Below are positions 3,041 through 35,120 of a DNA stretch of 64,000 bases, one piece after another (the first letter of the stretch is position 1; each line of letters starts with the position of its first letter). The stretch is from an uncultured Candidatus Binatia bacterium (GTDB lineage: Bacteria; Desulfobacterota; Binatia; UBA9968; JAJDTQ01). The stretch spans positions 3,520,001-3,584,000 of the forward strand of contig OZ251459.1 in assembly GCA_965242525.1 (NCBI GenBank). Reading direction: 5' to 3'. A program made the position numbers and the translations under genes. The notes under the pieces were generated by a model. It had not been told where the DNA came from. It saw only the letters and a list, made by a program, of their open reading frames with translations, and did no database searches.

Positions 3041-3499
3041 ATGCGGCATGGCATGACCTGCGAGGAGTTTCGCCCGGGCGACGTCCACCGGACCGCCCGG
3101 CGCACCGTCACGGAGACCGACGTGGTCCAGTTCGTCAACCTGGCCGGCCTCACGGAGCCCCTGTTCATGGACGCCGAGTACATGCGGGACGAGACCGAGT
3201 ACGGCGAGCGCATCGCTCCCGGAAGCCTGACCTTCGCCCTGGCAGAGGGACTGACCACCCAGACCGGGATGCTGCACGGCACGGGCCTGGCTTTCGTCGG
3301 ACTCGCGGGCATGCGCCTGTACCGGCCGGTGAAGGTCGGGGACACCGTAAGCGTCGAGATCGAGGTACGGGACGTCCGGCCCACGCGCTCCCGCAACGCG
3401 GGCATCGTCCGCTGCCGGCAGGTGGTGAAGAACCAGCGAGGGGAGACGGTGATGGACTACACGGTGGACCGCCTGATCCGAGGCAAGCCCCCCTCGTGA
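3041..3499 (+). CDS. MaoC-like (hotdog-fold) dehydratase
   Basis: RTVTETDVVQFVNLAG, ERIAPGSL, PVKVGDT motifs. Confidence 0.9.
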   Translation: MRHGMTCEEFRPGDVHRTARRTVTETDVVQFVNLAGLTEPLFMDAEYMRDETEYGERIAPGSLTFALAEGLTTQTGMLHGTGLAFVGLAGMRLYRPVKVGDTVSVEIEVRDVRPTRSRNAGIVRCRQVVKNQRGETVMDYTVDRLIRGKPPS

Positions 3500-4696: not shown

Positions 4697-5839
4697 TCAG
4701 GCGCCGTTCAATTGCGGCATGACCTCCTTGTGGAACCGGTCCAGGGAATCGATCACCTTGTCGTGGGCCAGGTTGCCGATGTGGAACATGCCCATGAAGT
4801 GCTCGGCGCCGATCTGGCTCATCTGCCGGTTGACCTGCCGCGCCACGGTGTCGGGGCTGCCGGCGATGACGAACCCCGTCTCCAGGAGCTGCTCCCAGCT
4901 CATGGGATGGAAGTTGACGCGCTCCTGGTTGCCTTCGCGGAAGTAGTTGAAGGACTTGGCGCTGACCATGGCCTCCTTCACCTTCCGCTGGTCCATGGCG
5001 ACGTCCGTCTTGGCCTCGTTGAAGCCCCGGTTCCACAGCGTGAAGAAGTACCGGAGCGGCGGCTCCGCAACCGCGCGTGCCTGTTCGTCGGTCTCGCCCA
5101 CGTAGATGTGGCGGCAGAGGACGAACTTGTCGGGGCCGCTCTCCCACCCCTGTTCCCCGGCCATGCGGCGGTAGTAGCCGAAGGTGTCCTCGATCTGGTC
5201 CGTGGTCTGATAGACCTGGGCGATGGGGATCTTGCGCTGGACGCACCATTCGATGGACTCGGCGCTGCGCGCCGCCACCCAGACGGGCGGGTGCGGCTGC
5301 TGCATGGGCCTGGGCCAGATGGCGCAGTTCTCGAACTGGAAGAACTCGCCCCGGTAGCTCCATACCGGCTCGGTCCAGGCCGTCATGATGACGTCGAACG
5401 CCTCGCCGAACCGCCCCCGGGACTCCTGGGGCTTGACGTTGTACCACAGGTATTCCGACGGGATGCCGCGGACGAACCCCGCGATCAACCGTCCCTGGGA
5501 CAGGCAGTCGAGCATGGCGTATTCCTCGGCCACGCGCACCGGGTGCTGCCGCAGCGGCAGGATGTTGCCGAGGACGCCGATCTTGATGCGTCGGGTCTTC
5601 TGGCTCAGGGCCGCGGCGATGAGGTTGGGCGAAGGCATGGTGCCGTAGGCGCTGTAGTGGTGCTCGTTGAAGACCACGCCCTCAAACCCCAACTCCTCGC
5701 AATAGGCCATTTCCTCCAGGTGCTCCCGGTAGTTGCGCGAGCCCACCGGCGGATCGAAGTAGGTGCTCGGAACCGGCGTGCCCGGGACGTCCTCGGGAAC
5801 TTCCGGGTACGCCAGCAGGTCGAAGTTATAGACTTTCAT
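4697..5839 (-). CDS. LLM class flavin-dependent oxidoreductase (luciferase-like monooxygenase)
   Basis: EHHYSAYGTMPSP, HPVRVAEEYAMLDCLSQGR, PRPMQQPHPP motifs. Confidence 0.93.
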   Translation of the reverse strand: MKVYNFDLLAYPEVPEDVPGTPVPSTYFDPPVGSRNYREHLEEMAYCEELGFEGVVFNEHHYSAYGTMPSPNLIAAALSQKTRRIKIGVLGNILPLRQHPVRVAEEYAMLDCLSQGRLIAGFVRGIPSEYLWYNVKPQESRGRFGEAFDVIMTAWTEPVWSYRGEFFQFENCAIWPRPMQQPHPPVWVAARSAESIEWCVQRKIPIAQVYQTTDQIEDTFGYYRRMAGEQGWESGPDKFVLCRHIYVGETDEQARAVAEPPLRYFFTLWNRGFNEAKTDVAMDQRKVKEAMVSAKSFNYFREGNQERVNFHPMSWEQLLETGFVIAGSPDTVARQVNRQMSQIGAEHFMGMFHIGNLAHDKVIDSLDRFHKEVMPQLNGA

Positions 5840-6014: not shown

Positions 6015-8014
6015 TCATCCCGTCAGCATCCCCGTGAGCACGCCCGGCGGGAACGGAAGGCTCAACGAATGGACGAAGACCGCGTAGAAGCCCGCCCAAC
6101 CGAACAACGCCAGCAGGACGCTGGTGAGCCATCTCTCCCCGGCGCCCGCCTTGAGGAAGAGGAAGGTGCAGAGCGGGACCGTGACGGAGAAGCCGAGCAG
6201 CCAGATGGAGGCGAAGAAGCCGAGGATCCAGCCCACGATGGCCGCGGTCCGCCTGACGGTCCGGGTTTCGACGGGCCCGGGCGCTCCCCCGCGCCGGAAG
6301 AACCCCGCCACGTCGAGCCCCGACTGGGCAAGCGCCAGGACCAGCCCCGGGAACCCGATGGCCCAGGGGAAGAGGCTCGCCCGGAAGCCCCAGTCCCGGG
6401 ACTGCCACACGCCCCAGGCGAACCCCGCCACGATGAGCAGGGAGAAGGCCATGTGCCAGACGGTGAGGGGCGCCGCGGCCTCCGCGGTCGGCTTCGCGGC
6501 CTCCGGGTCTCCCGCGGGCCCTCGCCCGGCGTCCCGCCGACGCTGGTAGAGGGGGTAGAGTATGCCCGCCAGGATATGGCGCCGATGACCAGCACCCCCG
6601 GAAAGCCCAGCCACGCCCAGCCGTAGTTGTCGGTGGCCAGGAACAGGTTCTTCTCCGCCAGGGAACCGAGCACGAGACCCAGCAGGAGCGGCGGGCGCGG
6701 CCAGTCGAGCTGCACCATGACCCACCCCAGTAGCCCGAAGGCCAGCACCACGATGAGGTCCTCGAACGCGTTGTTCTGGGCGAAGCCCCCCAGGTAGATG
6801 AGCACCAGCAGGAAGGGGATGACCAGGCTGCCGCGGACCTCGGTGATGCGCGCCAGTTGCTTGAGGAAGACGAAGCAGACGGAGACCGTGATGACGTTGG
6901 AGACCACGACGATCCACACGAACGAGAACGTCAGGTCCAGGTGGCCGCCCTGGCTTGCGGGCAGGAGCATCGGGGGTCCGGGGACCAGGCCCTGGATGAT
7001 GAAGGCCCCGAGGAGGATGGCCATGGTGACGCTGCCGGGCACGCCGAACGCGATGGTGGGCACCAGCGCGCCCCCCAGGTTGGAGTTGTTGGCTGCGCCC
7101 GGCCCCAGCACCCCTTCCACCGCCCCCTTGCCGAAGCGGTCCTTGTCGGGCGAGGTCTGGACCGCGTGGGCGTACGCCACCCACTGGGAGACGGCGCCGC
7201 CCATGCCCGGGATGATCCCGATGTAGGTGCCGATGGCGCTGCAACGCAGCACCAGGGCCCAGTGGCGGAAGGTGTCCTTGACCCCCTCCATGACGCCGCC
7301 CAGCTTCTCCACCTTCTCTTCGGCGATGCTGGACCCCTTGACCGACAACTCGATGACCTCGGGGATGGCGAACAGCCCCAGGGTGACGGGCACCAGCTTG
7401 ATGCCGTCCCAGAGGTAGAGGTTGTCGAAGGTGAACCGTTCGATGCCCGATATGGGGTCGAGTCCCACGGTGGCGAGCATGAGGCCCAGGGCCGCGGCGG
7501 TGAGGCCCCGGACCACGGCTCCGCCGCTGAGGGAGGCCAGGAACGTGACCCCCAGCAGCGCGAGCATGAAGAACTCCGGCGACCCGATGGCGAGCACCAG
7601 GGGACGGACCACGGGAATGGCCAGGGCCAGCGCGAAGGCGCCGAAGACGGCGCCCACCAGCGAGCTCATGAGAGAGGCCCCCAGGGCGCGCCCGGCCTCG
7701 CCCTTCTTGGCCATGGGGTGTCCGTCCACGATGGTGGACGCGGTAATGGCTTCGCCCGGGATGCCGAAGAGTATGGAGGTGATGTCCCCGGTGGTGGCGG
7801 TGACCGCGGACATGCCCAGCAGGAAGGCGAAGGCCTCCACCGCCTCCATCTTGAAGATGAACGGCAGCATCAGCGCCAGCGTGACCGGTCCGCCGAGGCC
7901 GGGCAGGATGCCCACGGCGAAGCCGATCACGATGCCCAGGAGCATCAGCGTGAAGGTCGTCGCAGTGAAGACTTGTGCCAGGCCTCCCGCAAAGGCCTGA
8001 AGCATTTCACCCAT
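6015..8014 (-). CDS. tctA: TctA-TctB fused permease with a 1-nt frameshift near 6575 (pseudogene or assembly error)
   Basis: TctA motifs (GILPGLG, GIPGE, AANNS) in frame of 6062-8014; TctB-like hydrophobic tail continues in frame ending 6015; junction GCC ATA TCC TGG vs expected GCC ATC ATC CTG. Confidence 0.8.
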
Positions 8015-8082: not shown

Positions 8083-9114
8083 TTACTTCTTGGGCAGGAG
8101 GATGTCCTTCAACAGGGCCACCGTGGCGGCGTCCATGTCGTAGAGACCCTTCATCTTCCCGGCGACCCAGTTGCCGTCTTGCGGGTTCAACTCCAGTTTC
8201 GACTTCTTGGCGTCGGCGATCAGCGCAGGGTCGCTGAAGGTGGCCATGAACGCCTTCTGGAGGGTCTTCACCCGGTCCGCGGGCACTCCCGGCGGCAGGC
8301 TGTAGGGCCGCGAGATGGCGCGGTAGACGTCGTTGGCCACTCCCAGCAGCGTCTTGCCCCTCTCCCCCTTGGCCAGCTTGCCCGCCAACGCCACGTCGGG
8401 CAGGTCCGGGTGGGGCTCCGGGGTCACCTGGAGTACGGGCTTGACGTTGCCGCTCTCGATGCCCTGCCTCCAGGTCGGCTTGATGGACTGCCATGCCCAG
8501 CAGCCGCCGTCGATCTCGCCCCGTTCGGCCGCCACCCGGATCAGCGCGGTGCCGCCGTATCCCTCGATGATCTGCATGGGCAGGTCGGTGGCGGCCTTGA
8601 CCAGCTTGGGCACGTCGTCCGTGGTGGAGCCCGGGCCGGTGGCGCCGATCTTGATGGGGCGCTTGGACTTGAGCCAGTCCTCGATGCTGTTGATGCCGCT
8701 GGCCTTGGTCAGCGCGCAGGTGTTGTCGTCGGTGACCGGGGCCCCGAGCCAGTTGAACTTGCGTCCGTCGAACTTGGCGCCCTTGCTGCCCAGCACCTGC
8801 TGGAGCACCAGCGGTCCGATCCAGTTGCCGACGGTAAGGCCGTCGGGCTTGGCCTTGTTGTAGATGTAGTTGGCGGCGATCAGGCTGCCGGCCCCGGTCA
8901 TGTTCTGGACCAGGGTCTTGGGATTGCCGGGCACGTGCTTGCCCATGTGGCGGGCGATGAGCCGGGTGTAGGTGTCGAAGCCGCCGCCCGGGGAGAACCC
9001 GACCACGAACCGGATGGTCTTGCCCTCGAAGAAGTCCGCTCCCACGGAGAGGGAGGGGAGCAGCGCCAGGACGAGCCCGGACAACATGACGGCGCGGAGA
9101 AAACGACTGACCAT
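8083..9114 (-). CDS. tctC: Tripartite tricarboxylate transporter substrate-binding protein
   Basis: AGGAGG RBS; signal peptide; GKTIRFVVGFSPGGGFD, NMTGAGS, KPDGLT. Confidence 0.9.
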   Translation of the reverse strand: MVSRFLRAVMLSGLVLALLPSLSVGADFFEGKTIRFVVGFSPGGGFDTYTRLIARHMGKHVPGNPKTLVQNMTGAGSLIAANYIYNKAKPDGLTVGNWIGPLVLQQVLGSKGAKFDGRKFNWLGAPVTDDNTCALTKASGINSIEDWLKSKRPIKIGATGPGSTTDDVPKLVKAATDLPMQIIEGYGGTALIRVAAERGEIDGGCWAWQSIKPTWRQGIESGNVKPVLQVTPEPHPDLPDVALAGKLAKGERGKTLLGVANDVYRAISRPYSLPPGVPADRVKTLQKAFMATFSDPALIADAKKSKLELNPQDGNWVAGKMKGLYDMDAATVALLKDILLPKK

Positions 9115-9218
9115 AAGGAGCCTCCTGTGTCGATGGTGGGACACGACGATGGTTATCGAGTTTCCCTTTCTGTCACAAATCCGGGGCAAAGGAAAGGACC
9201 GAAAATGTTTCGCAGGGG

Positions 9219-9263
9219 TTGCGCTTGGCGAAAAAGGTCTTAAACTTAGCGAACGATCGTTTG
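9219..9263 (+). promoter_or_regulatory. Putative sigma70 promoter with overlapping palindromic TetR-type operator
   Basis: TTGCGC-16nt-TAAACT (9219-9246), then CGAACGATCGTTTG (9250-9263; perfect core AACGATCGTT). Confidence 0.5.
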
Positions 9264-9289
9264 AAAAATCCATGCAAGGAGACGCGGGA

Positions 9290-10390
9290 ATGAACAGGAT
9301 CGCCACTTTCGACGACTGGACCGACTGCTTCAGGGAATGGCAGAAGGACATCGGGTACGACGCGGACCTGCTGGGGGACTACAGGTTCGAGACCAAGCTC
9401 GGGGACCTCCACAGCGAGGAGGTGGAGTTCGGCGACTACCGGGGCGGACGCAAGTGGGAGCGCGCAGGCCAGATACCCAACCAGGCCGTCCGGGACGCGC
9501 TGCTCACGCTCATCGTCTATCAGGGCGACACCGAGTTCGCCTCGGTGGAGCAGCAGAAGAACCTCCTGGACAACGCCCCCACCGAGTACGACCGGCAGGC
9601 GCTGATCCGCGTCAACAGCGACGAGATGAGGCACGGCTGGCAGATGTGCTACCTGCTGGTGAACTACTTCGGCGACACCGGCAAGCTGGAGGCGCGGAAA
9701 CTGCTGGAGCGCAGGGCCAACGAACAGCAACGCCTCCTGGGGTCGTTCAACCAGCCGGTCCACAACTGGCTGGACTTCTTCACCTACACCCAGTTCGTGG
9801 ACCGGGACGGCAAGTTCCAGCTCACCATGCTCAGCCACTCGGCTTTCGCGCCCCTGGCCCGCAGCGTCTCGGCCATGCTGAAGGAGGAGTTCTTCCACAT
9901 GTTCACCGGGAACACCGGGCTCACGCGCATCGTGAGGGCGAACCGGATCCCCGTGCCCATCATCCAGAAGTACTTCAACAAGTGGCTGTCCACCGCCTAC
10001 GACCTCTTCGGCACCGACCGCTCCTCGTCGGCCCAGTGGGCCTACGTGTGGGGTTTGAAAGGCCGCTTCGACGAGGCCGCGGCCGGGCAGCCCGCGGACC
10101 GGGAGAGGCTCAACGAGACGGCCCGCGCCCACTACCTGGACGAATGCCGGGGACTCGTGGACAACCTCAACCGCTTCGTCCCCGAAGGGGAGCCCCGGCT
10201 CCGGATCCCGGACGTGAAGTTCAACCGCTCCATCGGCGACCACGCCGGCATGACCTACGGCGTCGATGGCGATTTGCTCTCCGACACGGAATATGAGAAA
10301 CATCTTTCCGAGGCGCTCCCCGGGGCAGAGGACGAACGTGTCCTGGACGAGGTCTTCCGGGAGAAGGACTGGGTGCTTCAGATGAACTAG
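9290..10390 (+). CDS. boxB: BoxB-like aryl-CoA di-iron epoxidase (PaaA/BoxB ferritin-like family), short form
   Basis: QGDTEFASVEQQ, DEMRHGW, RLLGSFN, DRDGKFQL, EEFFHM parallel BoxB motifs; AAGGAGA RBS. Confidence 0.8.
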   Translation: MNRIATFDDWTDCFREWQKDIGYDADLLGDYRFETKLGDLHSEEVEFGDYRGGRKWERAGQIPNQAVRDALLTLIVYQGDTEFASVEQQKNLLDNAPTEYDRQALIRVNSDEMRHGWQMCYLLVNYFGDTGKLEARKLLERRANEQQRLLGSFNQPVHNWLDFFTYTQFVDRDGKFQLTMLSHSAFAPLARSVSAMLKEEFFHMFTGNTGLTRIVRANRIPVPIIQKYFNKWLSTAYDLFGTDRSSSAQWAYVWGLKGRFDEAAAGQPADRERLNETARAHYLDECRGLVDNLNRFVPEGEPRLRIPDVKFNRSIGDHAGMTYGVDGDLLSDTEYEKHLSEALPGAEDERVLDEVFREKDWVLQMN

Positions 10391-10487
10391 CGTTTCCCCG
10401 CCGCATCCGCCGGGCCGGCGCCGCGGCCCCGGTCGAACGTGTCCCAGGAGCACGCATGGCAGGACGGGCGGCGGGCGCTCCCCGGCC

Positions 10488-10829
10488 ATGCGCAAGGAGA
10501 ACCCGGTGAAACGATTCTGCCTCGTCTGCCAGAACGTGGACTGCAAGAGTCGAGGCTCCGAAGAGCTGATGCGCGACTTGCGGCAACGGGCGGCGGACAA
10601 GGGCCTGGACGACGTGGAAGTGCGTTCCTACATGTGCTTCGGGGCGTGCCAGGAAGGCCCCAACATGGTCCTCTACCCCGACAAGTTCTGGTACGCCAGC
10701 GTGAAGCGGGAGGACCTGGACGACATCGTGGCGCACTTGGCCGGCGGCCCGCCCGTGGACCGGCTGGACAAGATCGACCCTTCCCTCAAGGAGCTCATCT
10801 ACCAGTTGCTGGACACCGGGGTCTTTTAG
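10488..10829 (+). CDS. Thioredoxin-fold [2Fe-2S] ferredoxin (NuoE-like cluster domain)
   Basis: VCQNVDC...MCFGACQEGPNM (C-x4-C...C-x3-C); true start may be GTG at 10506 after AAGGAGA. Confidence 0.88.
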   Translation: MRKENPVKRFCLVCQNVDCKSRGSEELMRDLRQRAADKGLDDVEVRSYMCFGACQEGPNMVLYPDKFWYASVKREDLDDIVAHLAGGPPVDRLDKIDPSLKELIYQLLDTGVF

Positions 10830-10834
10830 CCGTC

Positions 10835-12070
10835 ATGGAAGGCATCCTGTTCCCGCGAGGCGTGGCCGAGGGACTCGAAGGCCTCGACGCCTATCGTTCC
10901 AGGGACGGCTACCGGGCCCTGGAGCGCAGCCTGCGCGAGCTTTCCCCCCAGGCGGTGATCGCGGAGTTGGAGCGGTCCGGCCTGCGCGGCAGGGGAGGCG
11001 CCGGGTTCCCCACCGCCCGGAAACTCGCCCTGACCCTGGAAAGCCCGGAAACGCCCCGCTACGTGGTGATGAACGGCGGCGAGGACGAACCCGGAAGCCG
11101 CAAGGACCGGGTGCTCATGGAGAACGTCCCCCACCTCGTCCTGGAGGGGGTGGTCCTGGCGGCCTACGCGGTGCAGGCGGAGAAAGCCTACCTCTACATC
11201 AACCGCGGCTACGAAGCGGCCGCGCGCGCCATGGCGACGGCCATGGACGAAGCCAGGGAAGCGGGTTACTGGGGCGAGGACGTCCTGGGTTCCGGTTTCG
11301 GCCTGGAGATCGTGACCGTGGCCGCGCCTTCCAACTACGTGGCGGGGGAGGACACCGCGGCCCTGGAGGTCATCGAGGGGAAGGACCCGCTGCCGCGGCG
11401 GAAGCCGCCCTTCCCCGTCACCGCCGGACTGTTCGGCAAGCCCAGCCTGGTCAACAACGTGGAGACCCTGGCCAACGTCGCGCCGATCCTCGCCCGGGGG
11501 CCGGAATGGTACCGCTCCTTCGGGGCCGGGGAGAGCCCCGGCACCATGCTCTTCTCCCTGGGGGACGAGATGGAAAGGCCGGGCGTCTATGAGCTGCCTT
11601 TCGGGACCCCCTTGCGCTACCTGCTGGAGGAATGCGGCGGCGGGCTGAAAGAGGGCAAGCGCGTCAAGGCCGTCCTTCCGGGCGGGCCGTCGTCGGGGTT
11701 CCTGCGGCCCGAAAACCTCGACGTGCCGCTGGACCACGCCTCCCTGCGCGACGCGGGATCGTCCATCGGATGCGGCGTGGTCAAGGTCCTTGCCGAAGGG
11801 GATTCCGTGCTGGACGAGGTGGCGCGCATCGCGGACTTCTTCGCCCGGGAGTCCTGCGGCCAATGCCCGGCCTGCCGCATGGAGACCAACATGCTGGCGG
11901 CGCTGCTCAGGAAGGTGCAGCAGGGACAGGGCAACGACGCCCTGGTGGAGCAGTTCGGCAAGGTGCTGGAGTTCAACCGGGGGAAGGGGTTCTGCAGCCT
12001 CATCCACATGCCGGGTCCGCCCATCGAGAGCGCGGTCCGGCTGTTCCCCGAAGAGTTCCGCGGCGCGTGA
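10835..12070 (+). CDS. NuoF/HydB-like NAD(P)H-binding FMN [4Fe-4S] flavoprotein
   Basis: SGLRGRGGAGFPT, EDEPGSRKDR, YVAGEDTA, NNVET, GGPSSG, ESCGQCPACR...CSL. Confidence 0.92.
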   Translation: MEGILFPRGVAEGLEGLDAYRSRDGYRALERSLRELSPQAVIAELERSGLRGRGGAGFPTARKLALTLESPETPRYVVMNGGEDEPGSRKDRVLMENVPHLVLEGVVLAAYAVQAEKAYLYINRGYEAAARAMATAMDEAREAGYWGEDVLGSGFGLEIVTVAAPSNYVAGEDTAALEVIEGKDPLPRRKPPFPVTAGLFGKPSLVNNVETLANVAPILARGPEWYRSFGAGESPGTMLFSLGDEMERPGVYELPFGTPLRYLLEECGGGLKEGKRVKAVLPGGPSSGFLRPENLDVPLDHASLRDAGSSIGCGVVKVLAEGDSVLDEVARIADFFARESCGQCPACRMETNMLAALLRKVQQGQGNDALVEQFGKVLEFNRGKGFCSLIHMPGPPIESAVRLFPEEFRGA

Positions 12071-12085
12071 CCGCGGCGGCCCGCT

Positions 12086-12271
12086 TCAGAGGTCGAGGCT
12101 CTTTCGCGGCAGGTTGAAGACCACGCCTTCGCCGTTCCGCACCAGGCAGGTGTCGTTGCTCCACTCCTTGATGACCTCCACCTCGTCTCCCGGCGAGAAC
12201 GACGCGTCCTCGACCCCGGCGTTCTTGGTGGACTGGTACTTGAAGGTAAACGCTTCCTTGACGGTGGCCAT
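12086..12271 (-). CDS. Small hypothetical protein (61 aa, possible SH3-like barrel)
   Basis: GGGAGG RBS; host-like codons; FSPGDEVEVIKEW. Confidence 0.7.
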   Translation of the reverse strand: MATVKEAFTFKYQSTKNAGVEDASFSPGDEVEVIKEWSNDTCLVRNGEGVVFNLPRKSLDL

Positions 12272-12309
12272 CCGAGGCCCCTCCCTTCTCCGTGGACCGC
12301 GCGCCGCGT

Positions 12310-13002
12310 TCAGGCCCTGTCCGGGCTTCGCCAGCTCCCGCGGCGGCCGGGGAGCCGCAACGCCCTCTCCAGGCCCTTCAGGAAAGCCGCGCGGGGGACC
12401 TCCCTGGCGCCGAGGCGCAGCATGTGGGAAGTTGTAACCTGCGCATCGATGAAATGGAAGCCCCAGCCCGAGAGCCGGTGGACGAGACCCGCCAACGCCG
12501 CCTTGGAGGCGTCGGTCTCCCTGTGGAACATGGACTCGCCGAAGAACCCCCCGCCGAGGGCCACGCCATAGACCCCGCCCACGAGCTCCGAGCCGATCCA
12601 GGTCTCCACCGAATGGGCCACTCCGGCGTCGTGGAGACGCACGTAGGCCCTCTCCATCTCCCGGGTGATCCACGTGCCGCCCTGACCGCGCCGCGGGACC
12701 GACGCGCAAGCGCGGATCACGCCCCGGAAGTCCTCGTCGAAGGTGACCCGGAACCGCCCCCGGTTCAGGACCCGCCGCAGGCGCCGGGAGACGTGGAACT
12801 CGCGCAGGTCGAGGACGCACCGGGGGTCCGGCGACCACCACAGGATCGGCTGGCCCTCGCCGTACCAGGGAAAGATACCCATCGAGTACGCCAGCACGAG
12901 GCGCGCGGTCCCCAGGTCGCCTCCCACCGCCAGGAGCCCGTTGGTCTCGGCCTCCTCCGGCGAGGGAAAGGCCAGTTCCCGGTTCAGGCGATAGACGGGC
13001 AT
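12310..13002 (-). CDS. aat: Leucyl/phenylalanyl-tRNA--protein transferase
   Basis: GLLAVGGDL, AYSMGIFPW, WWSPDPR, TWIT, AHSVE, FGESMF, DASK. Confidence 0.95.
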   Translation of the reverse strand: MPVYRLNRELAFPSPEEAETNGLLAVGGDLGTARLVLAYSMGIFPWYGEGQPILWWSPDPRCVLDLREFHVSRRLRRVLNRGRFRVTFDEDFRGVIRACASVPRRGQGGTWITREMERAYVRLHDAGVAHSVETWIGSELVGGVYGVALGGGFFGESMFHRETDASKAALAGLVHRLSGWGFHFIDAQVTTSHMLRLGAREVPRAAFLKGLERALRLPGRRGSWRSPDRA

Positions 13003-28993: not shown

Positions 28994-30107
28994 GCTGTGT
29001 CGGCAGGCCCACGAGGAAACGCGGCGCTCCGCGGCCCGGGCCGCGGACGCCTACCTGGTGACGCGCAACTGGCTGCTCGGCCGGTACATCGTCGAGTACG
29101 AGCAGCGCGGCGCGGACCGCAGCACGCTCTACGGCGAGAAGCTGATCGAGCGCTTGGCCAACGAACTCACGGCCAGCGGGCTGAAGGGCTGCTCCCCCAC
29201 CAACCTGCGGAAGTTCCGGGAGTTCTACCGCGCCTACCCGGAGATTCGACAGACACCGTCTGTTGAATCCATCGCCAACCTGCCGCCCGAGATTCAACAG
29301 ACAGTGTCTGTTGAATCTCTCCGGACCTCCACGGGCATCGCATCGGCCCTGTCCTCATCCATGGACAACCGGTTCTCCCTCGGCTGGTCCCACTACGTCA
29401 CCCTCCTGACCATCGGCCGCGCCGAAGAGCGCGCCTTCTACGAGGTCGAGGCGGCCCAAAGTCAGTGGAGCGTGCGCGAACTGAAACGGCAGATCGCCAG
29501 TTCCCTGTACGAGCGGCTGGCGCTGAGCCGCGACAAGGAAGAAGTCCACCGGCTTTCCCGCGAGGGACAGGTGGTCGAGAAAGCGTCGGACCTCATCAAG
29601 GATCCCCTCGTGCTGGAGTTTCTCGGCCTGGAAGAAAGGCTCGCCTATTCCGAGACCGAGATGGAAACGGCCATCATCGACCGCCTCCAACACTTCCTGC
29701 TCGAATTGGGCAAGGGCTTCCTGTTCGAGGCGCGCCAGAAGCGGTTCACCTTCGACAACAGCCATTTCTTCGTGGACCTCGTGTTCTACAACCGCCTGCT
29801 GCACTGCTACGTCCTGATAGACCTCAAGCGCGGCGAACTGACCCATCAGGACCTGGGCCAGATGCAGATGTACGTCAACTACTTCGACCGCTACGTGAAG
29901 ACCGACGCCGAACTCCCTACCGTCGGCATCGTCCTCTGCGGCGGCAAGAACGACGCCGTGGTGGAACTGACCCTCCCGCAAGACGCCAACATCTACGCCT
30001 CGCAATACCAACTCTACCTGCCCTCGAAACAGGAATTGGAGGCGCAACTGGCGAGCATCCAGCGAGAACTCGACGACGGGGAAGGCGAAAGTGAAGGAAA
30101 TGGATAA
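28959..30107 (+). CDS. YhcG/DUF1016 PD-(D/E)XK nuclease domain protein
   Basis: NWLLGRYIVEYEQ, LGWSHY, WSVRELKRQI, KDPLVLEFL, LELGKGF, DLGQMQMYVNY; GTGA overlap with hsdM. Confidence 0.93.
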   Translation: MSRELDFERLVELCRQAHEETRRSAARAADAYLVTRNWLLGRYIVEYEQRGADRSTLYGEKLIERLANELTASGLKGCSPTNLRKFREFYRAYPEIRQTPSVESIANLPPEIQQTVSVESLRTSTGIASALSSSMDNRFSLGWSHYVTLLTIGRAEERAFYEVEAAQSQWSVRELKRQIASSLYERLALSRDKEEVHRLSREGQVVEKASDLIKDPLVLEFLGLEERLAYSETEMETAIIDRLQHFLLELGKGFLFEARQKRFTFDNSHFFVDLVFYNRLLHCYVLIDLKRGELTHQDLGQMQMYVNYFDRYVKTDAELPTVGIVLCGGKNDAVVELTLPQDANIYASQYQLYLPSKQELEAQLASIQRELDDGEGESEGNG

Positions 30108-30147
30108 GGCCCCGACCGCCTTACGGGAAGCACAGACAAGTGACGAA

Positions 30148-30247
30148 GAACGGAAGGTGGAGGCGTTCGACAGGAAGGTCAAGAGGCACTTGAAGCGGAT
30201 GGGGTTGTCGCTGTGAGCCGGGGATTCTATTTTGAGCGGCTTGTCGA
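30148..30247 (+). repeat. Direct repeat A copy 2
   Basis: Shares CACTTGAAGCGGATGGGGTTGTCG and GAGCGGCTTGTCGA with copy 1. Confidence 0.85.
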
Positions 30248-30261
30248 ACAAGGAGGAGCGC

Positions 30262-30486
30262 ATGAAACATACAGTGAAAGCCGTCTATGAAAATGGCGTC
30301 TTCAAACCGCTAATAGCGCCCGGGATTCCCCATGGACAGCAAGTCCGCCTGGAAATAGAGCCTCTGGGCGAACCATCGGTCATGGATGTACTGAAACTGG
30401 CCGCCCAGGTGTACCAAGATCTCTCTGAACAGGACGTTGATGAAATCGAGCGCATGGCTTGCCACCGACGGGAATTTTTTGGATAG
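30262..30486 (+). CDS. Antitoxin family protein (AF2212/DUF104-like)
   Basis: AAGGAGG RBS; KAVYENGVFKPL; upstream of PIN toxin. Confidence 0.85.
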   Translation: MKHTVKAVYENGVFKPLIAPGIPHGQQVRLEIEPLGEPSVMDVLKLAAQVYQDLSEQDVDEIERMACHRREFFG

Positions 30487-30497
30487 GCAAACATCCG

Positions 30498-30908
30498 ATG
30501 GCTTTACGGCAAGTGATACTGGATACGGACATTCTTTCTGCGATCATGCGAGAGAATTCTGTCGTACTGTCCAAAGCACGCGCCTATCTTGGGGAGCACG
30601 GATGTTTTACCTTATCTATTATTACCCGCTATGAAATCCTCCGAGGTCTGGCAGCTAAAGAGGCCCGTCGGCAGATGGCAGTTTTTGAAATGTTGTGCAA
30701 TCAGAGCACTATTCTGCCTCTTACAGAAGAAGCGATTGCCAAAGCAGCCGAGATTTACGCTGAGCTTGCTCACCGAGGCCAATTGATCGGAGATGCAGAT
30801 ATTTTGATTGCAGCTTCCGCCATGGTGCAGGAGTTCGGGCTGGTGACCAATAATGAACGTCATTTCCGGCGGATAAAGGGTCTTCAAGTAGAGAACTGGT
30901 TGACGTAG
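30498..30908 (+). CDS. vapC: VapC family PIN-domain toxin
   Basis: ILDTDILS, YEI, DADILIAASA, LVTNNERHF. Confidence 0.9.
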   Translation: MALRQVILDTDILSAIMRENSVVLSKARAYLGEHGCFTLSIITRYEILRGLAAKEARRQMAVFEMLCNQSTILPLTEEAIAKAAEIYAELAHRGQLIGDADILIAASAMVQEFGLVTNNERHFRRIKGLQVENWLT

Positions 30909-30973
30909 AAAACGGCCCGATGTGCCGCCTCGGAGCCATGTGACATCTCGGCAACGAATTGGGAGGATCGACA

Positions 30974-31198
30974 ATGGAAGACCGGATAACCGTATCGGTC
31001 GATTCCGATGTGGCCAAGGCGTATAGATCGGCTTCGGAGAGTGAGCGTCGCAAACTGGATTTGCTCATCAACTTGCGCTTGCATGAGGCGATAAAGCCTG
31101 GAAAATCGCTACGGGAAATCATGTCGGAAATCAGCCGTAACGCGCAACGCCGCGGCCTGACCCCGGAAATCCTGCAATCCATCCTGGGCGAGAAATGA
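30974..31198 (+). CDS. Putative antitoxin (orphan)
   Basis: GGGAGG RBS; SLREIMSEISRNAQRRGLTPEILQSIL tail typical of PIN-linked antitoxins. Confidence 0.7.
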   Translation: MEDRITVSVDSDVAKAYRSASESERRKLDLLINLRLHEAIKPGKSLREIMSEISRNAQRRGLTPEILQSILGEK

Positions 31199-31266
31199 CC
31201 CGCGTCATTTTCAACAGCAACGGCATGAACCTGGGGGGTCGTACGGACATCTTCCTTGAAGAGTAA
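31195..31266 (+). pseudogene. Stub of a PIN-family toxin
   Basis: ATGA overlap; MTRVIFNSN resembles MxRVVxDTN; stop after 23 aa. Confidence 0.45.
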
Positions 31267-31408
31267 CCTTGACAGGCGCTTCTCGATTTGGCTACCTTGA
31301 GATGGAGCCTGGACCGGGACGCCGACCATTCGCCCCGAAAAGTGGCACTGAACCGATCCCAACGGGCAGAATCGAGGACATCCAAACTGCAAACCGGAGG
31401 TAAATCCC

Positions 31409-31648
31409 ATGACTGTCGAAGAAGCCGGGGAGCTGCTTAGGCGCATGTACGAGACCGCGCCATATAGAGAAAAGACCACTTACATTCGCCTGTTCGGCAT
31501 CAAGTATGCAAGCGACCTGGATTCACTATCGCTCAAAGACGTCGTCACAAAAGCCGGCCTTGGAAGGCCCTCCTATGATACAGAGGTCAGAAAAGGCATG
31601 AATCTGGCCAAGTACGTTCAGATGAAAGCTGGCGTGGGCTTGGAATAG
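31409..31648 (+). CDS. Small hypothetical protein, possible HTH-like
   Basis: GGAGG RBS; IRLFGIKYA...SYDTEVRKGMNLAKYV. Confidence 0.75.
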   Translation: MTVEEAGELLRRMYETAPYREKTTYIRLFGIKYASDLDSLSLKDVVTKAGLGRPSYDTEVRKGMNLAKYVQMKAGVGLE

Positions 31649-31738
31649 TGACTGTCTGCCTGCCATCGAAACGGAACTGACTGTCGCAACTGATGAGCGT
31701 TCAGGAAGAATTTGGCGGATTTCAGGAGAACCTGACCG

Positions 31739-33061
31739 ATGGATGAGAGACGAGCCGAAATGAGCGTCTCACTATCGGACGGCGCGCCGGGGACAGATGC
31801 CCCGGCTGGCTACGAGTGGACCGAGGTGGGCATGATCCCTCGCGACTGGACGCTTGGGAGGCTTGCGGATTTCGGGGTATTTCGTAGCGGAAGTGGATTT
31901 CCTCTCGTCCATCAAGGACTCCCATCAGGCGACTATCCGTTCTTCAAGGTCTCCGATATGAACAACTACGGCAATGAGTTGTTCATGGAAGTTGCAAATC
32001 ACTGGATCACTGAAGAAACAAGGAAGAAACTAGGCGCTGTCCAACATCCAATTGGAAGTATTGTCTTCGCCAAAATCGGAGCGGCGATCTTCTTGGAAAG
32101 AAAGCGTCTCCTGTCACAGGGAAGCTGTATCGACAACAACATGATGGCTTTCACTCTGACGGATCATCATGCTTGCCAGCGGTTCTTCTACTATCTTCTT
32201 CTCAACCTTGAACTTGGAAAGCTTGTCTCGACAACTGCACTCCCGTCGTTGTCTGGACGACAGATTGGCACGATCACTGTTCCCATACCACCTACCGATG
32301 AACAACGCGCCATTGCCGAAGCCTTGTCAGAGGTGGATGATTTGCTCGCCGCTTTGGAAAAGCTGATCGCCAAGAAGCAGGCCATCAAGCAGGCCGCTAT
32401 GCAGCAACTTTTAACCGGCAAGACCCGGTTGCCGGGATTCAGCGGAGAATGGGAGACAAAACAGCTAGGGACACTCGGCTTCTTCTCGAAGGGACGCGGA
32501 ATCAAACGTGAGGATATTTCCAGTACAGGCTTTCCATGCATCCGCTATGGAGAATTGTACACGCGCTATAGAGACTACATTTTGAACGCAGTAGCGCGTA
32601 TTCCTTCGTCTGTTGCTCAGATGGCGCTGCCGATTAAAACAGGCGATCTACTATTTGCCGGGTCGGGTGAGACATCGGAGGAAATCGGCCAATGCGCGGT
32701 CTATCTTTGTGATGAACCTGGTTATGCAGGCGGGGATATTATAGTATTGACGCCCTTGGGCCAAAACTCGCTTTATCTGGGCTATCTGATGAACCGGCCA
32801 GCAGTAGCAAGACAAAAAGCTCGTATGGGACAGGGAGATGCAGTCGTTCATATTAACCCTCGTAACTTGGCTCAAATTGAGATTGATCTTCCAGCATTGG
32901 AAGAACAAGCCGCCATCGCCGTCGTCCTCTCCGACATGGATGCCGAAATTGCCTCCTTGGAACGGCGCCGCGACAAGATTCGCACCCTCAGACAGGGCAT
33001 GATGCAGCAACTCCTGACCGGGCGGGTACGGCTTATCGAAACATATGAGTCATGGCCATAA
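31739..33061 (+). CDS. hsdS: Type I RM specificity subunit
   Basis: TEVGMIPRDW, EQRAIAEALS..KQAAMQQLLTGKTRLPGFSGEW, second EQAAIA..MQQLLTG; AT-richer TRDs. Confidence 0.95.
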   Translation: MDERRAEMSVSLSDGAPGTDAPAGYEWTEVGMIPRDWTLGRLADFGVFRSGSGFPLVHQGLPSGDYPFFKVSDMNNYGNELFMEVANHWITEETRKKLGAVQHPIGSIVFAKIGAAIFLERKRLLSQGSCIDNNMMAFTLTDHHACQRFFYYLLLNLELGKLVSTTALPSLSGRQIGTITVPIPPTDEQRAIAEALSEVDDLLAALEKLIAKKQAIKQAAMQQLLTGKTRLPGFSGEWETKQLGTLGFFSKGRGIKREDISSTGFPCIRYGELYTRYRDYILNAVARIPSSVAQMALPIKTGDLLFAGSGETSEEIGQCAVYLCDEPGYAGGDIIVLTPLGQNSLYLGYLMNRPAVARQKARMGQGDAVVHINPRNLAQIEIDLPALEEQAAIAVVLSDMDAEIASLERRRDKIRTLRQGMMQQLLTGRVRLIETYESWP

Positions 33062-33214
33062 GCGCGAGAGAAAGAGACTTTCATGGAAGGGTCTCTGTTC
33101 AGGTTCGGCTAGCACCCGAGGGCGCAGACCGTTTCCGCGTCTTTATTGTTGGATAATTCCCAAACTTTACCGAAGTGAGGTTCGGACATGGAATAGGGAC
33201 AGATTCGTGAATTT

Positions 33215-33499
33215 TTGAATGAAAAGCTGATCGCCTACTTGAAGCAGAAAAGGGAGAATGATATGCTGAATAATCAGGTCTCGCTGAAGATCAAACTTTT
33301 AGAGTGGAGGAACAATTTGGCAAAACTCTTTGCTCGGATAATTCCAAAGTCCGATAACAACTTGAAATTGATCGTTATTCTAGCAACCTTGTTTATGACA
33401 TTTTTGCTGATTCAAGGCGGGGCAACTGGCTTTGGAATGGGATACTGGTTTGCAGCGGTGATTTTTCTGATTACGAACTTATTGTCTAAGATTCGTTAG
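33215..33499 (+). CDS. AT-rich small ORF with two predicted TM helices (hypothetical or remnant)
   Basis: LIVILATLFMTFLLI and YWFAAVIFLITNLL hydrophobic runs; start uncertain. Confidence 0.4.
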   Translation: MNEKLIAYLKQKRENDMLNNQVSLKIKLLEWRNNLAKLFARIIPKSDNNLKLIVILATLFMTFLLIQGGATGFGMGYWFAAVIFLITNLLSKIR

Positions 33500-33572
33500 A
33501 GCATCCACGGTAACGAAGGCAATAGGCAGTGATTGCAGAAGATCAGGGAATTGGCAGGCGGGAGAGTCGTCC

Positions 33573-35120
33573 ATGATCGAGCAACGCTTCCGCACCCTCG
33601 GGGAACAGTTGCAGGGCAAGAAGCCACACCTGCCGCACTTCCTGGCGGAGATCCACTTGCAGGGCATTCGCGGCATCGACGACCTGCGGGTGGTGTTCGA
33701 CTACCCGGTGAGCGTCATTGCCGGCGGCAACGCCAGCGGCAAATCGACGGTGCTGTTCGCGGCCGCCTGCGCCTACAAGGTGCCGGGCGCGGGGGTCAAG
33801 GACTTCGTGCCGTCCACGCTGTTTCCCGATTACCGTCCCAGGGTAGGCGCACGCGAGGACGAAAAGGGCGAAGTCCTCATGGAGTTCGACTACGCCACGC
33901 CCGACGGGCGGCGGTCCATGCGCTGGCGGCGCGCCAAGGGGTGGAACCGCAGCTTCCTTGGCCGCAAAGACGCGCGCCAGCCGGAACGCCCCCTCTATCT
34001 CAGGACACTCAGCAATCTCAGCAACCCGTCCGAAGTGCGCGGCGTGCTCAGCCTGTCGCGCCTGAATGCCGCGCCGCGGGAAACTCCGCTGACGGCCTCG
34101 CAGATCGAGTTCGCCCAACAGATGCTTCCCTTCAGGTACGCGGAGGTCGTCAACCTGTCCAGCGGCAGCAAGAACCTGCTCTTTGCCGCGCAGGAAGGCG
34201 GCGCCGCGTACTCGGAACTGCACATGGCCGCTGGCGAGCGCGCCATCCTGCGGCTGTCGCAGGAAATCGCCCAACTCCATGGCGCCCTGGTCCTGATCGA
34301 CGAGGTGGAGGCCGGGCTGCACCCCTGGGTGCAACAGCTTCTCATGTTGCAGTTGCAGCAGCTCGCCCTGCGCAACGACCTGCAAGTCATCGTCACGTCG
34401 CACAGCCCGGTGGTGCTCGACTCGGTGCCCGCCCACGGACGTATCTTCCTGGAACGCGACGAAACGGGCCGGGTCACGGTGCTGCCGGCCTTTCGGGACG
34501 TGGTGCAGGACGCGCTATATGGACGCTCGGGCGACGCCCTCAACCTGTTGTGCGAGGACGACGCCGCGGAAGGCATGCTGCACGGCGTTTTCGACGCCCT
34601 GCTTCCCCGCCAGAGAATCAGGCCAGAGTCCGTTCGGATCAGACGAAACACGGGCGCCGGCGAATTCCCGACGCACGCCAGGGCGTTCAGAAAGTTCGGC
34701 CAGATCCGGAACTTCGTCTTCGTGCTGGACGGCGACAAGCGGGACAGCGGCATCGAACCGCGGATACGAGAGAGCGCCGGCATCGAGGTGCCGATCCTGT
34801 TCCTCCCCGGCCGAGACGCGCCGGAAGTCTGGATATGGGACAGGTTGCGGAGGAATACGGACGCCGCGGCCGGGATCGGTCTCGCCCCGGGTGACCTGTC
34901 CGAGCACATGGTCCGGCTGGACTCGGTTTACGATTCGGCGTCCGACCGGCCGTCGGAGATCGCCAAGTCCAAGCTCCGCAGCCTGTCCGAAGCCTTGGAC
35001 TGGAAAGTACCGGACGTATGCCGTGTGGTTGCCCGGCTGGAAGCCGGCCGCAAAGAGAGCGACATCCAGCCCTTGGTGGAAGGGTTGCAGGGCGCGTTAC
35101 TGCAATGGCGGGCAGAGTAG
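33573..35120 (+). CDS. ABC/AAA ATPase fused to TOPRIM-like domain (OLD/PARIS-like ATP-dependent nuclease)
   Basis: Walker A GGNASGKST, signature MAAGER, Walker B LIDEVE, TSHS; TOPRIM LCED and VLDGD. Confidence 0.85.
   Translation: MIEQRFRTLGEQLQGKKPHLPHFLAEIHLQGIRGIDDLRVVFDYPVSVIAGGNASGKSTVLFAAACAYKVPGAGVKDFVPSTLFPDYRPRVGAREDEKGEVLMEFDYATPDGRRSMRWRRAKGWNRSFLGRKDARQPERPLYLRTLSNLSNPSEVRGVLSLSRLNAAPRETPLTASQIEFAQQMLPFRYAEVVNLSSGSKNLLFAAQEGGAAYSELHMAAGERAILRLSQEIAQLHGALVLIDEVEAGLHPWVQQLLMLQLQQLALRNDLQVIVTSHSPVVLDSVPAHGRIFLERDETGRVTVLPAFRDVVQDALYGRSGDALNLLCEDDAAEGMLHGVFDALLPRQRIRPESVRIRRNTGAGEFPTHARAFRKFGQIRNFVFVLDGDKRDSGIEPRIRESAGIEVPILFLPGRDAPEVWIWDRLRRNTDAAAGIGLAPGDLSEHMVRLDSVYDSASDRPSEIAKSKLRSLSEALDWKVPDVCRVVARLEAGRKESDIQPLVEGLQGALLQWRAE

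Follow-up and report, generated by a model that had tools for sequence, protein, structure and literature searches.

A gene for a short BoxB-like putative oxygenase in an uncultured Binatia bacterium, conserved in linkage with a split HydB/NuoF-type pair as its proposed reductase

Three genes are considered here, found in a 64,000-nucleotide stretch of DNA (the window) from an uncultured Candidatus Binatia bacterium (assembly GCA_965242525.1, contig OZ251459.1, positions 3,520,001 to 3,584,000). They lie on the + strand between window positions 9290 and 12070 and encode, in order, a 366-aa short BoxB-like di-iron oxygenase (9290-10390; matched by PF05138, TIGR03225 and the structure 3PER), a 113-aa thioredoxin-like [2Fe-2S] ferredoxin (10488-10829; PF01257), and a 411-aa NuoF-like flavoprotein with a site for flavin mononucleotide (FMN) and NAD(P)H and one [4Fe-4S] cluster (10835-12070; PF01512, PF10531, PF10589). 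Intergenic gaps are 97 nt and then 5 nt, and the frames, the strand and the narrower gap are just as a first-pass annotation of the window had described them. I propose, with a probability of roughly 0.55, that the three genes constitute an operon encoding an aryl-CoA oxygenase that needs O2 and NAD(P)H and is supplied with electrons by a split HydB/NuoF-type pair instead of by the reductase BoxA. The arrangement is probably an undescribed way of powering a BoxB-type oxygenase. The order of the genes is conserved, they are distributed together, and the residues that bind cofactors and line the pocket are intact.

In the aerobic hybrid pathways of benzoate and phenylacetate, the key step belongs to di-iron aryl-CoA epoxidases (BoxAB, PaaABCE). 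BoxA is a protein of the ferredoxin-NADP reductase (FNR) type that carries two [4Fe-4S] clusters, and to my knowledge the reductases described for this group of epoxidases are all FNR-type. A search of the literature outside subscription journals found no description of a short BoxB or of a NuoF-type reductase for an oxygenase, which agrees with the first-pass annotation, where the arrangement was not recognised as one already described. Conserved pairing of such an enzyme with a NuoF/HydB-type flavoprotein would extend the known oxygenase reductases by a new class, and it would show a complex-I module reused outside of respiration and hydrogen metabolism.

What I infer is the path of electrons, the substrate, the product, the epoxidase activity itself, and the sharing of the reductase with a paralog. 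The NuoF-like flavoprotein would accept hydride from NAD(P)H onto FMN and release single electrons by way of its [4Fe-4S] cluster to the [2Fe-2S] ferredoxin, which would deliver them to the di-iron centre of the BoxB-like enzyme. The enzyme would then activate O2 and epoxidise, or otherwise oxygenate, the ring of benzoyl-CoA or of a closely related ring-substituted benzoyl-CoA. The pair would take the place of BoxA as a shared rather than a private reductase, and within the genus it most likely also serves an unlinked BoxB-like paralog with the same pocket. Downstream, scattered enoyl-CoA hydratases (ECH), aldehyde dehydrogenases (ALDH) and enzymes resembling PaaF, PaaG, PaaH and PaaJ would act in place of BoxC.

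The linkage that the first-pass annotation took to define a three-gene module is conserved in relatives. The short BoxB family is large, numbering over 5000 proteins in the databases and an estimated 1600 stretches in genomes, from which a scan taking one genome per species returned 80 loci. In 30 of these the BoxB-like protein is at least 70% identical to that of the window. Two of the 30 lie at a contig edge, and in every one of the 28 that have at least 1.6 kb downstream, the ferredoxin and NuoF-like genes follow directly. The remaining 50 loci (58-63% identity) carry labels such as Gemmatimonadaceae, Acidobacteriota and Chloroflexota, and an intact NuoF-like gene appears at none of them (0/50, 46 having at least 1.2 kb downstream). 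A metagenome scan made from the side of the NuoF-like protein gave 80 loci, several of them near-duplicates. The ferredoxin is present in all 62 with room upstream, and the BoxB-like gene in 57 of the 61 with room for it. Even in a deeper metagenome clade, at 55-60% identity, the order BoxB-like, ferredoxin, NuoF-like is unchanged.

The genes are also distributed together. Amongst 151 genomes sampled from the phylum, kin included, the NuoF-like ortholog (called at E <= 1e-110) occurs in the window's genome (G000) and in G036 and in none of the 149 others; a short BoxB-like gene is likewise confined to these two genomes of the sample. The three genes lie side by side in G036 too, at 60-63% identity. 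Because related genomes are not independent, the co-occurrence is to be taken as an association and not as a statistic. Within the same order, a BoxB-like gene was found in all 41 genomes searched and the NuoF-like ortholog, at 64% identity or more, in 38. The three without it are G166 and G168, whose loci are at contig ends (the coordinates of G168 are the same as those of L009), and G189. G166 was tried as a genome devoid of the pair and rejected as such, since its syntenic locus stops at the end of the contig.

By family and fold the first protein is a relative of BoxB. It scores 55 bits against PF05138, the PaaA_PaaC superfamily (gathering threshold 28.5), and 238.3 bits against the BoxB equivalog TIGR03225, under half of the cut-off of 499.1. 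The superfamily is shared with PaaABC(D)E, the phenylacetyl-CoA 1,2-epoxidase, and relatives of the window protein adjoin PaaG-, PaaF-, PaaH- and PaaJ-like genes, but the PaaA models themselves give it only 48 bits against a cut-off of 280. Its closest solved structure is BoxB 3PER (E 3e-55, query residues 20-348). An AlphaFold2 model built on a 66-row alignment (pLDDT 82, pTM 0.85) was submitted to Foldseek and found BoxB best (3Q1G/3PM5, TMq 0.85), followed by SSO1313 (4MUD) and PaaA, at a TMq of about 0.5. The predicted fold is thus that of BoxB from Azoarcus/Aromatoleum evansii (3PER, 3PM5, 3Q1G).

Canonical BoxB is longer. A genome of the same class (L196) encodes one of 473 aa, which scores 835.7 bits against TIGR03225 and whose gene has boxC (868 bits) and a benzoate-CoA ligase gene (634 bits) as its neighbours. 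The window protein is 39% identical to it and shorter by about 107 aa, close to the 100 or so that the first-pass annotation had given. What is missing are some 50 residues at the N-terminus, 19 after residue 216, 25 after residue 274, and 30 at the C-terminus.

The metal site is kept. PMC5489048 names E120, E150, H153, D211, E240 and H243 as the di-iron ligands of BoxB, and Q116, T119, S123, F193, F203, F206 and T210 as second-shell residues that orient benzoyl-CoA. Both sets, as given there, were mapped onto the window protein by way of the 3PER alignment, and their conservation was counted in 80 short BoxB-like proteins. The six iron ligands, shared with BoxB, correspond to E82, E112, H115, D171, E200 and H203 and are identical in 80/80. 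At the seven pocket positions the window has Q78, T81, S85, F153, F163, Y166 and V170. Of the residues so listed, Q116, T119, S123 and F193 are identical in all 80 proteins and F203 in 78. Judged from this alignment, the pocket of the short family is like that of BoxB without being identical to it, and it is the same in linked and stand-alone members.

The two partner proteins resemble parts of complex I and of hydrogenases. The ferredoxin scores 32.2 bits against PF01257 (cut-off 24.8), over profile positions 62-144 of 145 only, and 31.7 bits against the NuoE model TIGR01958 (cut-off 142.4), over positions 63-147 of 148. It does not have the N-terminal helical domain of NuoE. Its four cysteines, C14, C19, C50 and C54 (CX4C...CX3C), are invariant in 66 rows of module loci, and among solved structures it is closest to the N-terminal [2Fe-2S] domain of HydB (7Q4V_B residues 8-92) and to free thioredoxin-like ferredoxins such as Aquifex Fd4 (1F37). 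Since five relatives have an in-frame stop just 5' of the conserved core, the ferredoxin may begin at the GTG at 10506 and be about 107 aa long.

The FMN, SLBB and [4Fe-4S] domains known from NuoF are all present in the NuoF-like protein (PF01512 139 bits, PF10531 37 bits, PF10589 59 bits), which so has a NuoF-type fold; C341, C344, C347 and C387, together with the FMN loop, are invariant in the same 66 rows. Against the NuoF equivalog TIGR01959 it reaches 404.3 bits, below the cut-off of 558.65, and its gene lies outside a nuo operon. Among PDB entries its scores are 329 bits for bacterial NuoF and 309 bits for HydB. Elsewhere in the genome, at C1:144-158 kb (C1 and C2 are two of the contigs of the assembly), lies a complete nuoA-N operon with its own nuoE and nuoF, the latter 43% identical to the NuoF-like protein. 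The NuoF-like gene is therefore not the only nuoF of the genome, a possibility that the first-pass annotation had raised against itself. There is in addition a NuoE-F fusion beside formate-dehydrogenase-like genes on contig C2.

The first-pass annotation described the pair as NuoE/NuoF-like, which stands as to the NuoF-type fold of the larger protein. The smaller one is without the N-terminal domain of NuoE, and its best relatives include the N-terminal domain of HydB, so that 'split HydB-like core' is the better name for the pair. Both proteins fall below the complex-I equivalog cut-offs, and there is no linked NuoG. The order ferredoxin to NuoF-like is collinear with the N-terminal [2Fe-2S] domain and core of HydB (7Q4V_B residues 8-92 and 129-525), as known from NAD-linked and bifurcating hydrogenases and from formate dehydrogenases. 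It differs from HydB in that the N-domain and core are in two genes, the C-terminal 2x[4Fe-4S] ferredoxin domain is missing, and no hydrogenase genes (HydA, HydC) are linked. It is likewise unlike BoxA.

The genome is 4.23 Mb long, with a G+C content (GC) of 67%, and is 99% complete. The best match to boxA in it is 25 bits (cut-off 459) and to boxC 76 bits (cut-off 712), neither within the window; the first-pass annotation had noted the absence of both genes from the window, and it extends to the whole genome. No paaA reaches its cut-off in the genome (best 85 bits), a search that did not include PaaB, PaaC, PaaD or PaaE, and there is no family member of HGD-D (class I benzoyl-CoA reductase) or of AFOR (BamB). 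In a genome so nearly complete, these absences leave the two short BoxB-like proteins, the linked one and its paralog, as the sole candidates recognisable by sequence for attack on an aryl-CoA ring.

A source of substrate may be found at L195 (G000:C1:2970-2990 kb), where a benzoate-CoA-ligase-family gene (597 bits, cut-off 375) stands beside ALDH and class II aldolase genes, followed by two open reading frames (ORFs) that match no family, an ECH gene, and one for a 549-aa UbiD-family decarboxylase. This cluster may be a feeder route to aryl-CoA. A lower pathway may be represented at C1:2617.8-2623 kb by a TetR gene and then PaaF-like (309 bits), PaaG-like (274), PaaH-like (360) and 3-oxoadipyl-CoA-thiolase-like (541) genes, all of them below their equivalog cut-offs, and an ECH-ALDH pair lies at C1:1582-1584.3 kb. 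The PaaH-like gene (L193 9110-10709, G000:C1:2619.1-2620.7 kb) consists of two overlapping ORFs of 287 and 249 aa, which cover the two halves of the 503-position PaaH model; the division may be a natural one, reflect a frameshift, or come from the gene calling itself.

Several lines of evidence weigh against the proposal as stated, one of which comes from natural deletions. In 11 genomes of the window's genus, the only BoxB-like gene is the 60% paralog, and 10 of these still have a NuoF-like ortholog, 81-86% identical, the exception being G166, with its contig end at the locus. Six were examined, and in all six the linked BoxB-like gene is a 3' stub of no more than about its last 60 codons, within the order binding protein, BoxB-like stub, ferredoxin, NuoF-like, 61-aa gene, aat. 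The pair is full-length in all six. The ratio of nonsynonymous to synonymous substitution rates (dN/dS) is 0.085 for the ferredoxin and 0.143 for the NuoF-like gene, at a dS of about 0.5, the same as at seven intact loci (0.099 and 0.139). At four metagenome loci, too, the BoxB-like gene has decayed in a similar way while the pair next to it is intact. The pair is thus under purifying selection and keeps a function without a BoxB-like neighbour, and so is not dedicated to the adjacent oxygenase alone. Here the first-pass annotation, which saw a three-gene epoxidase module with a complex-I-derived donor, needs amending: the conserved linkage, the separate nuo operon and the lack of boxA uphold it, but the pair is not a dedicated partner.

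A pair that also serves the paralog would explain why it survives once the linked copy is lost. The linked copy is missing only in genomes that hold the paralog (11/11) and is never missing in the 8 single-copy genomes, a pattern that would fit two mutually redundant enzymes, alike in their pocket and supplied by one reductase. Whichever enzymes it serves, the deletions offer a ready comparison of genomes with and without the linked oxygenase. The scars of the six congeners are alike but not identical. The NuoF tree is unresolved, and a locus tree made from six genes of the flanks does not group the deletion genomes together (p-AU 0.03). A single ancient deletion was considered and is not established: the endpoints of the scars are similar, but the locus tree disfavours one clade. 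One old deletion and several are both possible. Two of the scars, in L097 and L099, carry between the binding-protein and ferredoxin genes an extra insert of about 100 bp, absent from the other four deletion genomes, with a promoter-like TTGACC...GCAATAGCAT stretch and a 20-nt palindrome.

The paralog brings a second difficulty, since it and its kin have a different neighbour. A tree of 128 BoxB-like sequences, with canonical BoxB for comparison, puts the short family in one group and canonical BoxB on a very long branch. Members linked to the pair occupy three positions: two clades, one of 64 sequences (support 99) and one of 10 (support 100), and the place of G036 near the base. The paralog of the window's genome (G000:C1:3681817-3682905) groups with L051, L083 and L056 (support 100), and at all four loci of this clade the BoxB-like gene is convergently adjoined by a gene for a GlpC-like CCG/[4Fe-4S] protein; in the window's genome the two genes lie within L001 6519-9005 (G000:C1:3680.5-3683 kb). 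The GlpC-like proteins are 70-76% identical amongst the four loci and score 296 bits on NF008369 (cut-off 278); neither glpA nor glpB is near this orphan gene in L001. In the same clade, L051 has, at 10750-11660, downstream of a BoxB-like gene of the stand-alone type, a truncated ferredoxin, matching query residues 23-113, and a NuoF-like remnant from which about 210 internal codons are gone, and L056 has a full thioredoxin-like ferredoxin upstream. Linkage to the pair therefore looks old, and later lost or replaced. Three results are new: the retention of the pair beside deleted BoxB-like genes, the co-distribution test on 151 genomes, and the GlpC-like neighbour in the clade of the paralog.

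Two side observations concern these relatives. The L051 cluster also contains xanthine dehydrogenase (XDH)-family subunits, two ALDHs, an ECH and an aryl-CoA-ligase-like gene. The window's genome has besides a third, distant PaaA/PaaC-family protein of 238 aa (87 bits on PF05138 and 87 bits on the PaaA model, cut-off 280), whose gene is followed by a 62-aa ORF and the beta and alpha genes of an electron-transfer flavoprotein (ETF) (L002 7822-10588, G000:C1:3839.8-3842.6 kb): a further ferritin-like di-iron protein, which also has a pair of electron-transfer genes linked to it.

The rest of the contrary evidence concerns breadth and chemistry. Five genomes from other phyla with stand-alone BoxB-like proteins have no NuoF-like ortholog, their closest matches being at 34-43% identity, the level of an ordinary nuoF. 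The enzyme family therefore does not depend on the pair, and the idea that the pair is the partner of stand-alone members across all phyla was rejected (5/5 such genomes without it). Some contigs labelled Verrucomicrobiia carry Binatia-type flanks, so the linked form may be spread over fewer taxa than the labels suggest. Within the pocket, two of the seven listed positions have changed throughout the family, F206 to Y in 79/80 (Y in the window) and T210 to V or I in 80/80 (V in the window), so that 5/7 are kept. Taken with a TIGR03225 score at half the cut-off, the changes mean that the substrate may not be benzoyl-CoA itself. Finally, because BoxC is absent, the fate of a 2,3-epoxide is unexplained.

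Could the pair be a general NAD(P)H:ferredoxin oxidoreductase with some other main client, its adjacency to the BoxB-like gene being one of several uses or an inherited order? That is what one might expect from a pair that stays intact and selected where the oxygenase is deleted, the more so as the deletion genomes are not one clade in the locus tree and loss may have been repeated, and as stand-alone BoxB-like genes in other phyla do without the pair. I consider this view unlikely, though it must be given real weight. The pair is seen only with a short BoxB-like gene (2/2 in the phylum sample vs 0/149, and 38 holders in the order), the order of the three genes is held down to 55-60% identity, and no alternative client is conserved beside the pair among the module loci compared. 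A somewhat slimmer chance attaches to the view that this is an oxygenase system acting on another CoA thioester (substituted, heterocyclic or alicyclic), or one that hydroxylates or desaturates, rather than a benzoyl-CoA 2,3-epoxidase. The low TIGR03225 score (238 bits against 499), the 39% identity to canonical BoxB with four segments trimmed, the two family-wide pocket changes and the lack of BoxC would all be at home in such a system, as would a family that is highly conserved and often found among housekeeping genes. Against it are the five second-shell residues, of seven, that are identical, the presence in the genome of a benzoate-CoA-ligase-family enzyme over its cut-off and of a 3-oxoadipyl-CoA-thiolase-like lower pathway, and the location of relatives in lower-pathway clusters of the paa/box type.

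Much the least probable is a rubrerythrin-like role, in which the three gene products would act on no organic substrate and would detoxify O2 or H2O2 as an NAD(P)H oxidase or peroxidase. A ferritin-like di-iron protein beside an NAD(P)H-linked Fe-S reductase is the usual layout of such systems, which the module matches in general plan, and in the host genome the module is outside any catabolic operon. A substrate-free oxidase would have no need of the residues of the BoxB CoA-thioester pocket, yet these are conserved in the family (80/80), and by fold the protein comes closest to BoxB, SSO1313 and PaaA rather than to rubrerythrin. I would therefore give this very little credence and return to an aryl-CoA oxygenase fed by the split pair.

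The proposal can be carried further, if more tentatively. The compact BoxB family may define an aerobic benzoyl-CoA route independent of BoxA and BoxC in major uncultured phyla of soils, sediments and sponges, with an electron input that can be exchanged: the NuoF-type pair, a GlpC-like protein, or an unlinked donor. I hold this wider idea to be possible, at somewhat less than even odds. Of the three inputs, the split HydB/NuoF-type pair is probably ancestral to the family, because it is present near the base of the tree and a decayed remnant of it persists in L051 of the paralog clade. If all this is true, the pair would be the first reductase derived from complex I or hydrogenase known to drive an oxygenase, and it would serve more than one oxygenase per cell.

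The stand-alone loci of other phyla have neighbours that suit such a route, with ECH at 37 of the 50, TetR at 24, 3-hydroxyacyl-CoA dehydrogenase at 23, ALDH at 19, and a 3-oxoadipyl-CoA-thiolase-like gene at 12 (569 bits, cut-off 605). Stand-alone members also adjoin unrelated housekeeping genes (uracil-DNA glycosylase, UDG; MutY-like; Macro). The compact family is abundant in Binatia, Acidobacteriota and Gemmatimonadota, and its members are annotated automatically as 'benzoyl-CoA 2,3-dioxygenase component B' or 'Phenylacetic acid catabolic protein'. Such names are given although BoxA and BoxC are missing from the window's genome, and the aromatic-carbon turnover assigned to these uncultured groups may thus depend on an enzyme whose activity is a prediction.

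As to the locus itself, all three frames of the module have a GC at third codon positions (GC3) of 0.90-0.93. Upstream lies a divergent intergenic region (9088-9289) between the BoxB-like gene and one for a periplasmic solute-binding protein (8083-9087, - strand, no family match), which is context and no part of the module. Alignment and blastn of the scar regions in the six congeners show that the part from 9088 to about 9197 is kept where the BoxB-like gene is gone, and so it may carry a putative promoter that still drives the ferredoxin and NuoF-like genes. A consensus scan of 8900-12400 found no sigma-70-like promoter. The corresponding scan for terminators found one site, on the minus strand inside the BoxB-like gene, fewer than in shuffled sequence. 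A search for RNA sequencing runs containing the locus returned none.

Beyond the solute-binding protein, and again only as context, is TctA (6062-7945; PF01970, 415 bits), and 6-8 kb from the module are a family III CoA-transferase (1268-2470) and a MaoC-like protein (3041-3499). The first-pass annotation thought that these genes fit aryl-CoA catabolism. The genes are indeed there, but the neighbourhood is common to only 4-7 of the 80 loci (the Tct side to 7), all close relatives, and therefore says little about function; as functional context it was set aside. A luciferase-like monooxygenase (4697-5839) was tried as a client of the pair and dropped, as it is missing at the module loci of the other two families. 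On the other side, convergent to the NuoF-like gene, is a 61-aa ORF (12086-12271, - strand, no family match), kept beside the module in 15 of the 80 loci and in all six deletion loci. Farther off, at window positions 30001-34000, GC falls from about 0.68 to 0.53 across some 4 kb, a drop that suggests acquired DNA.

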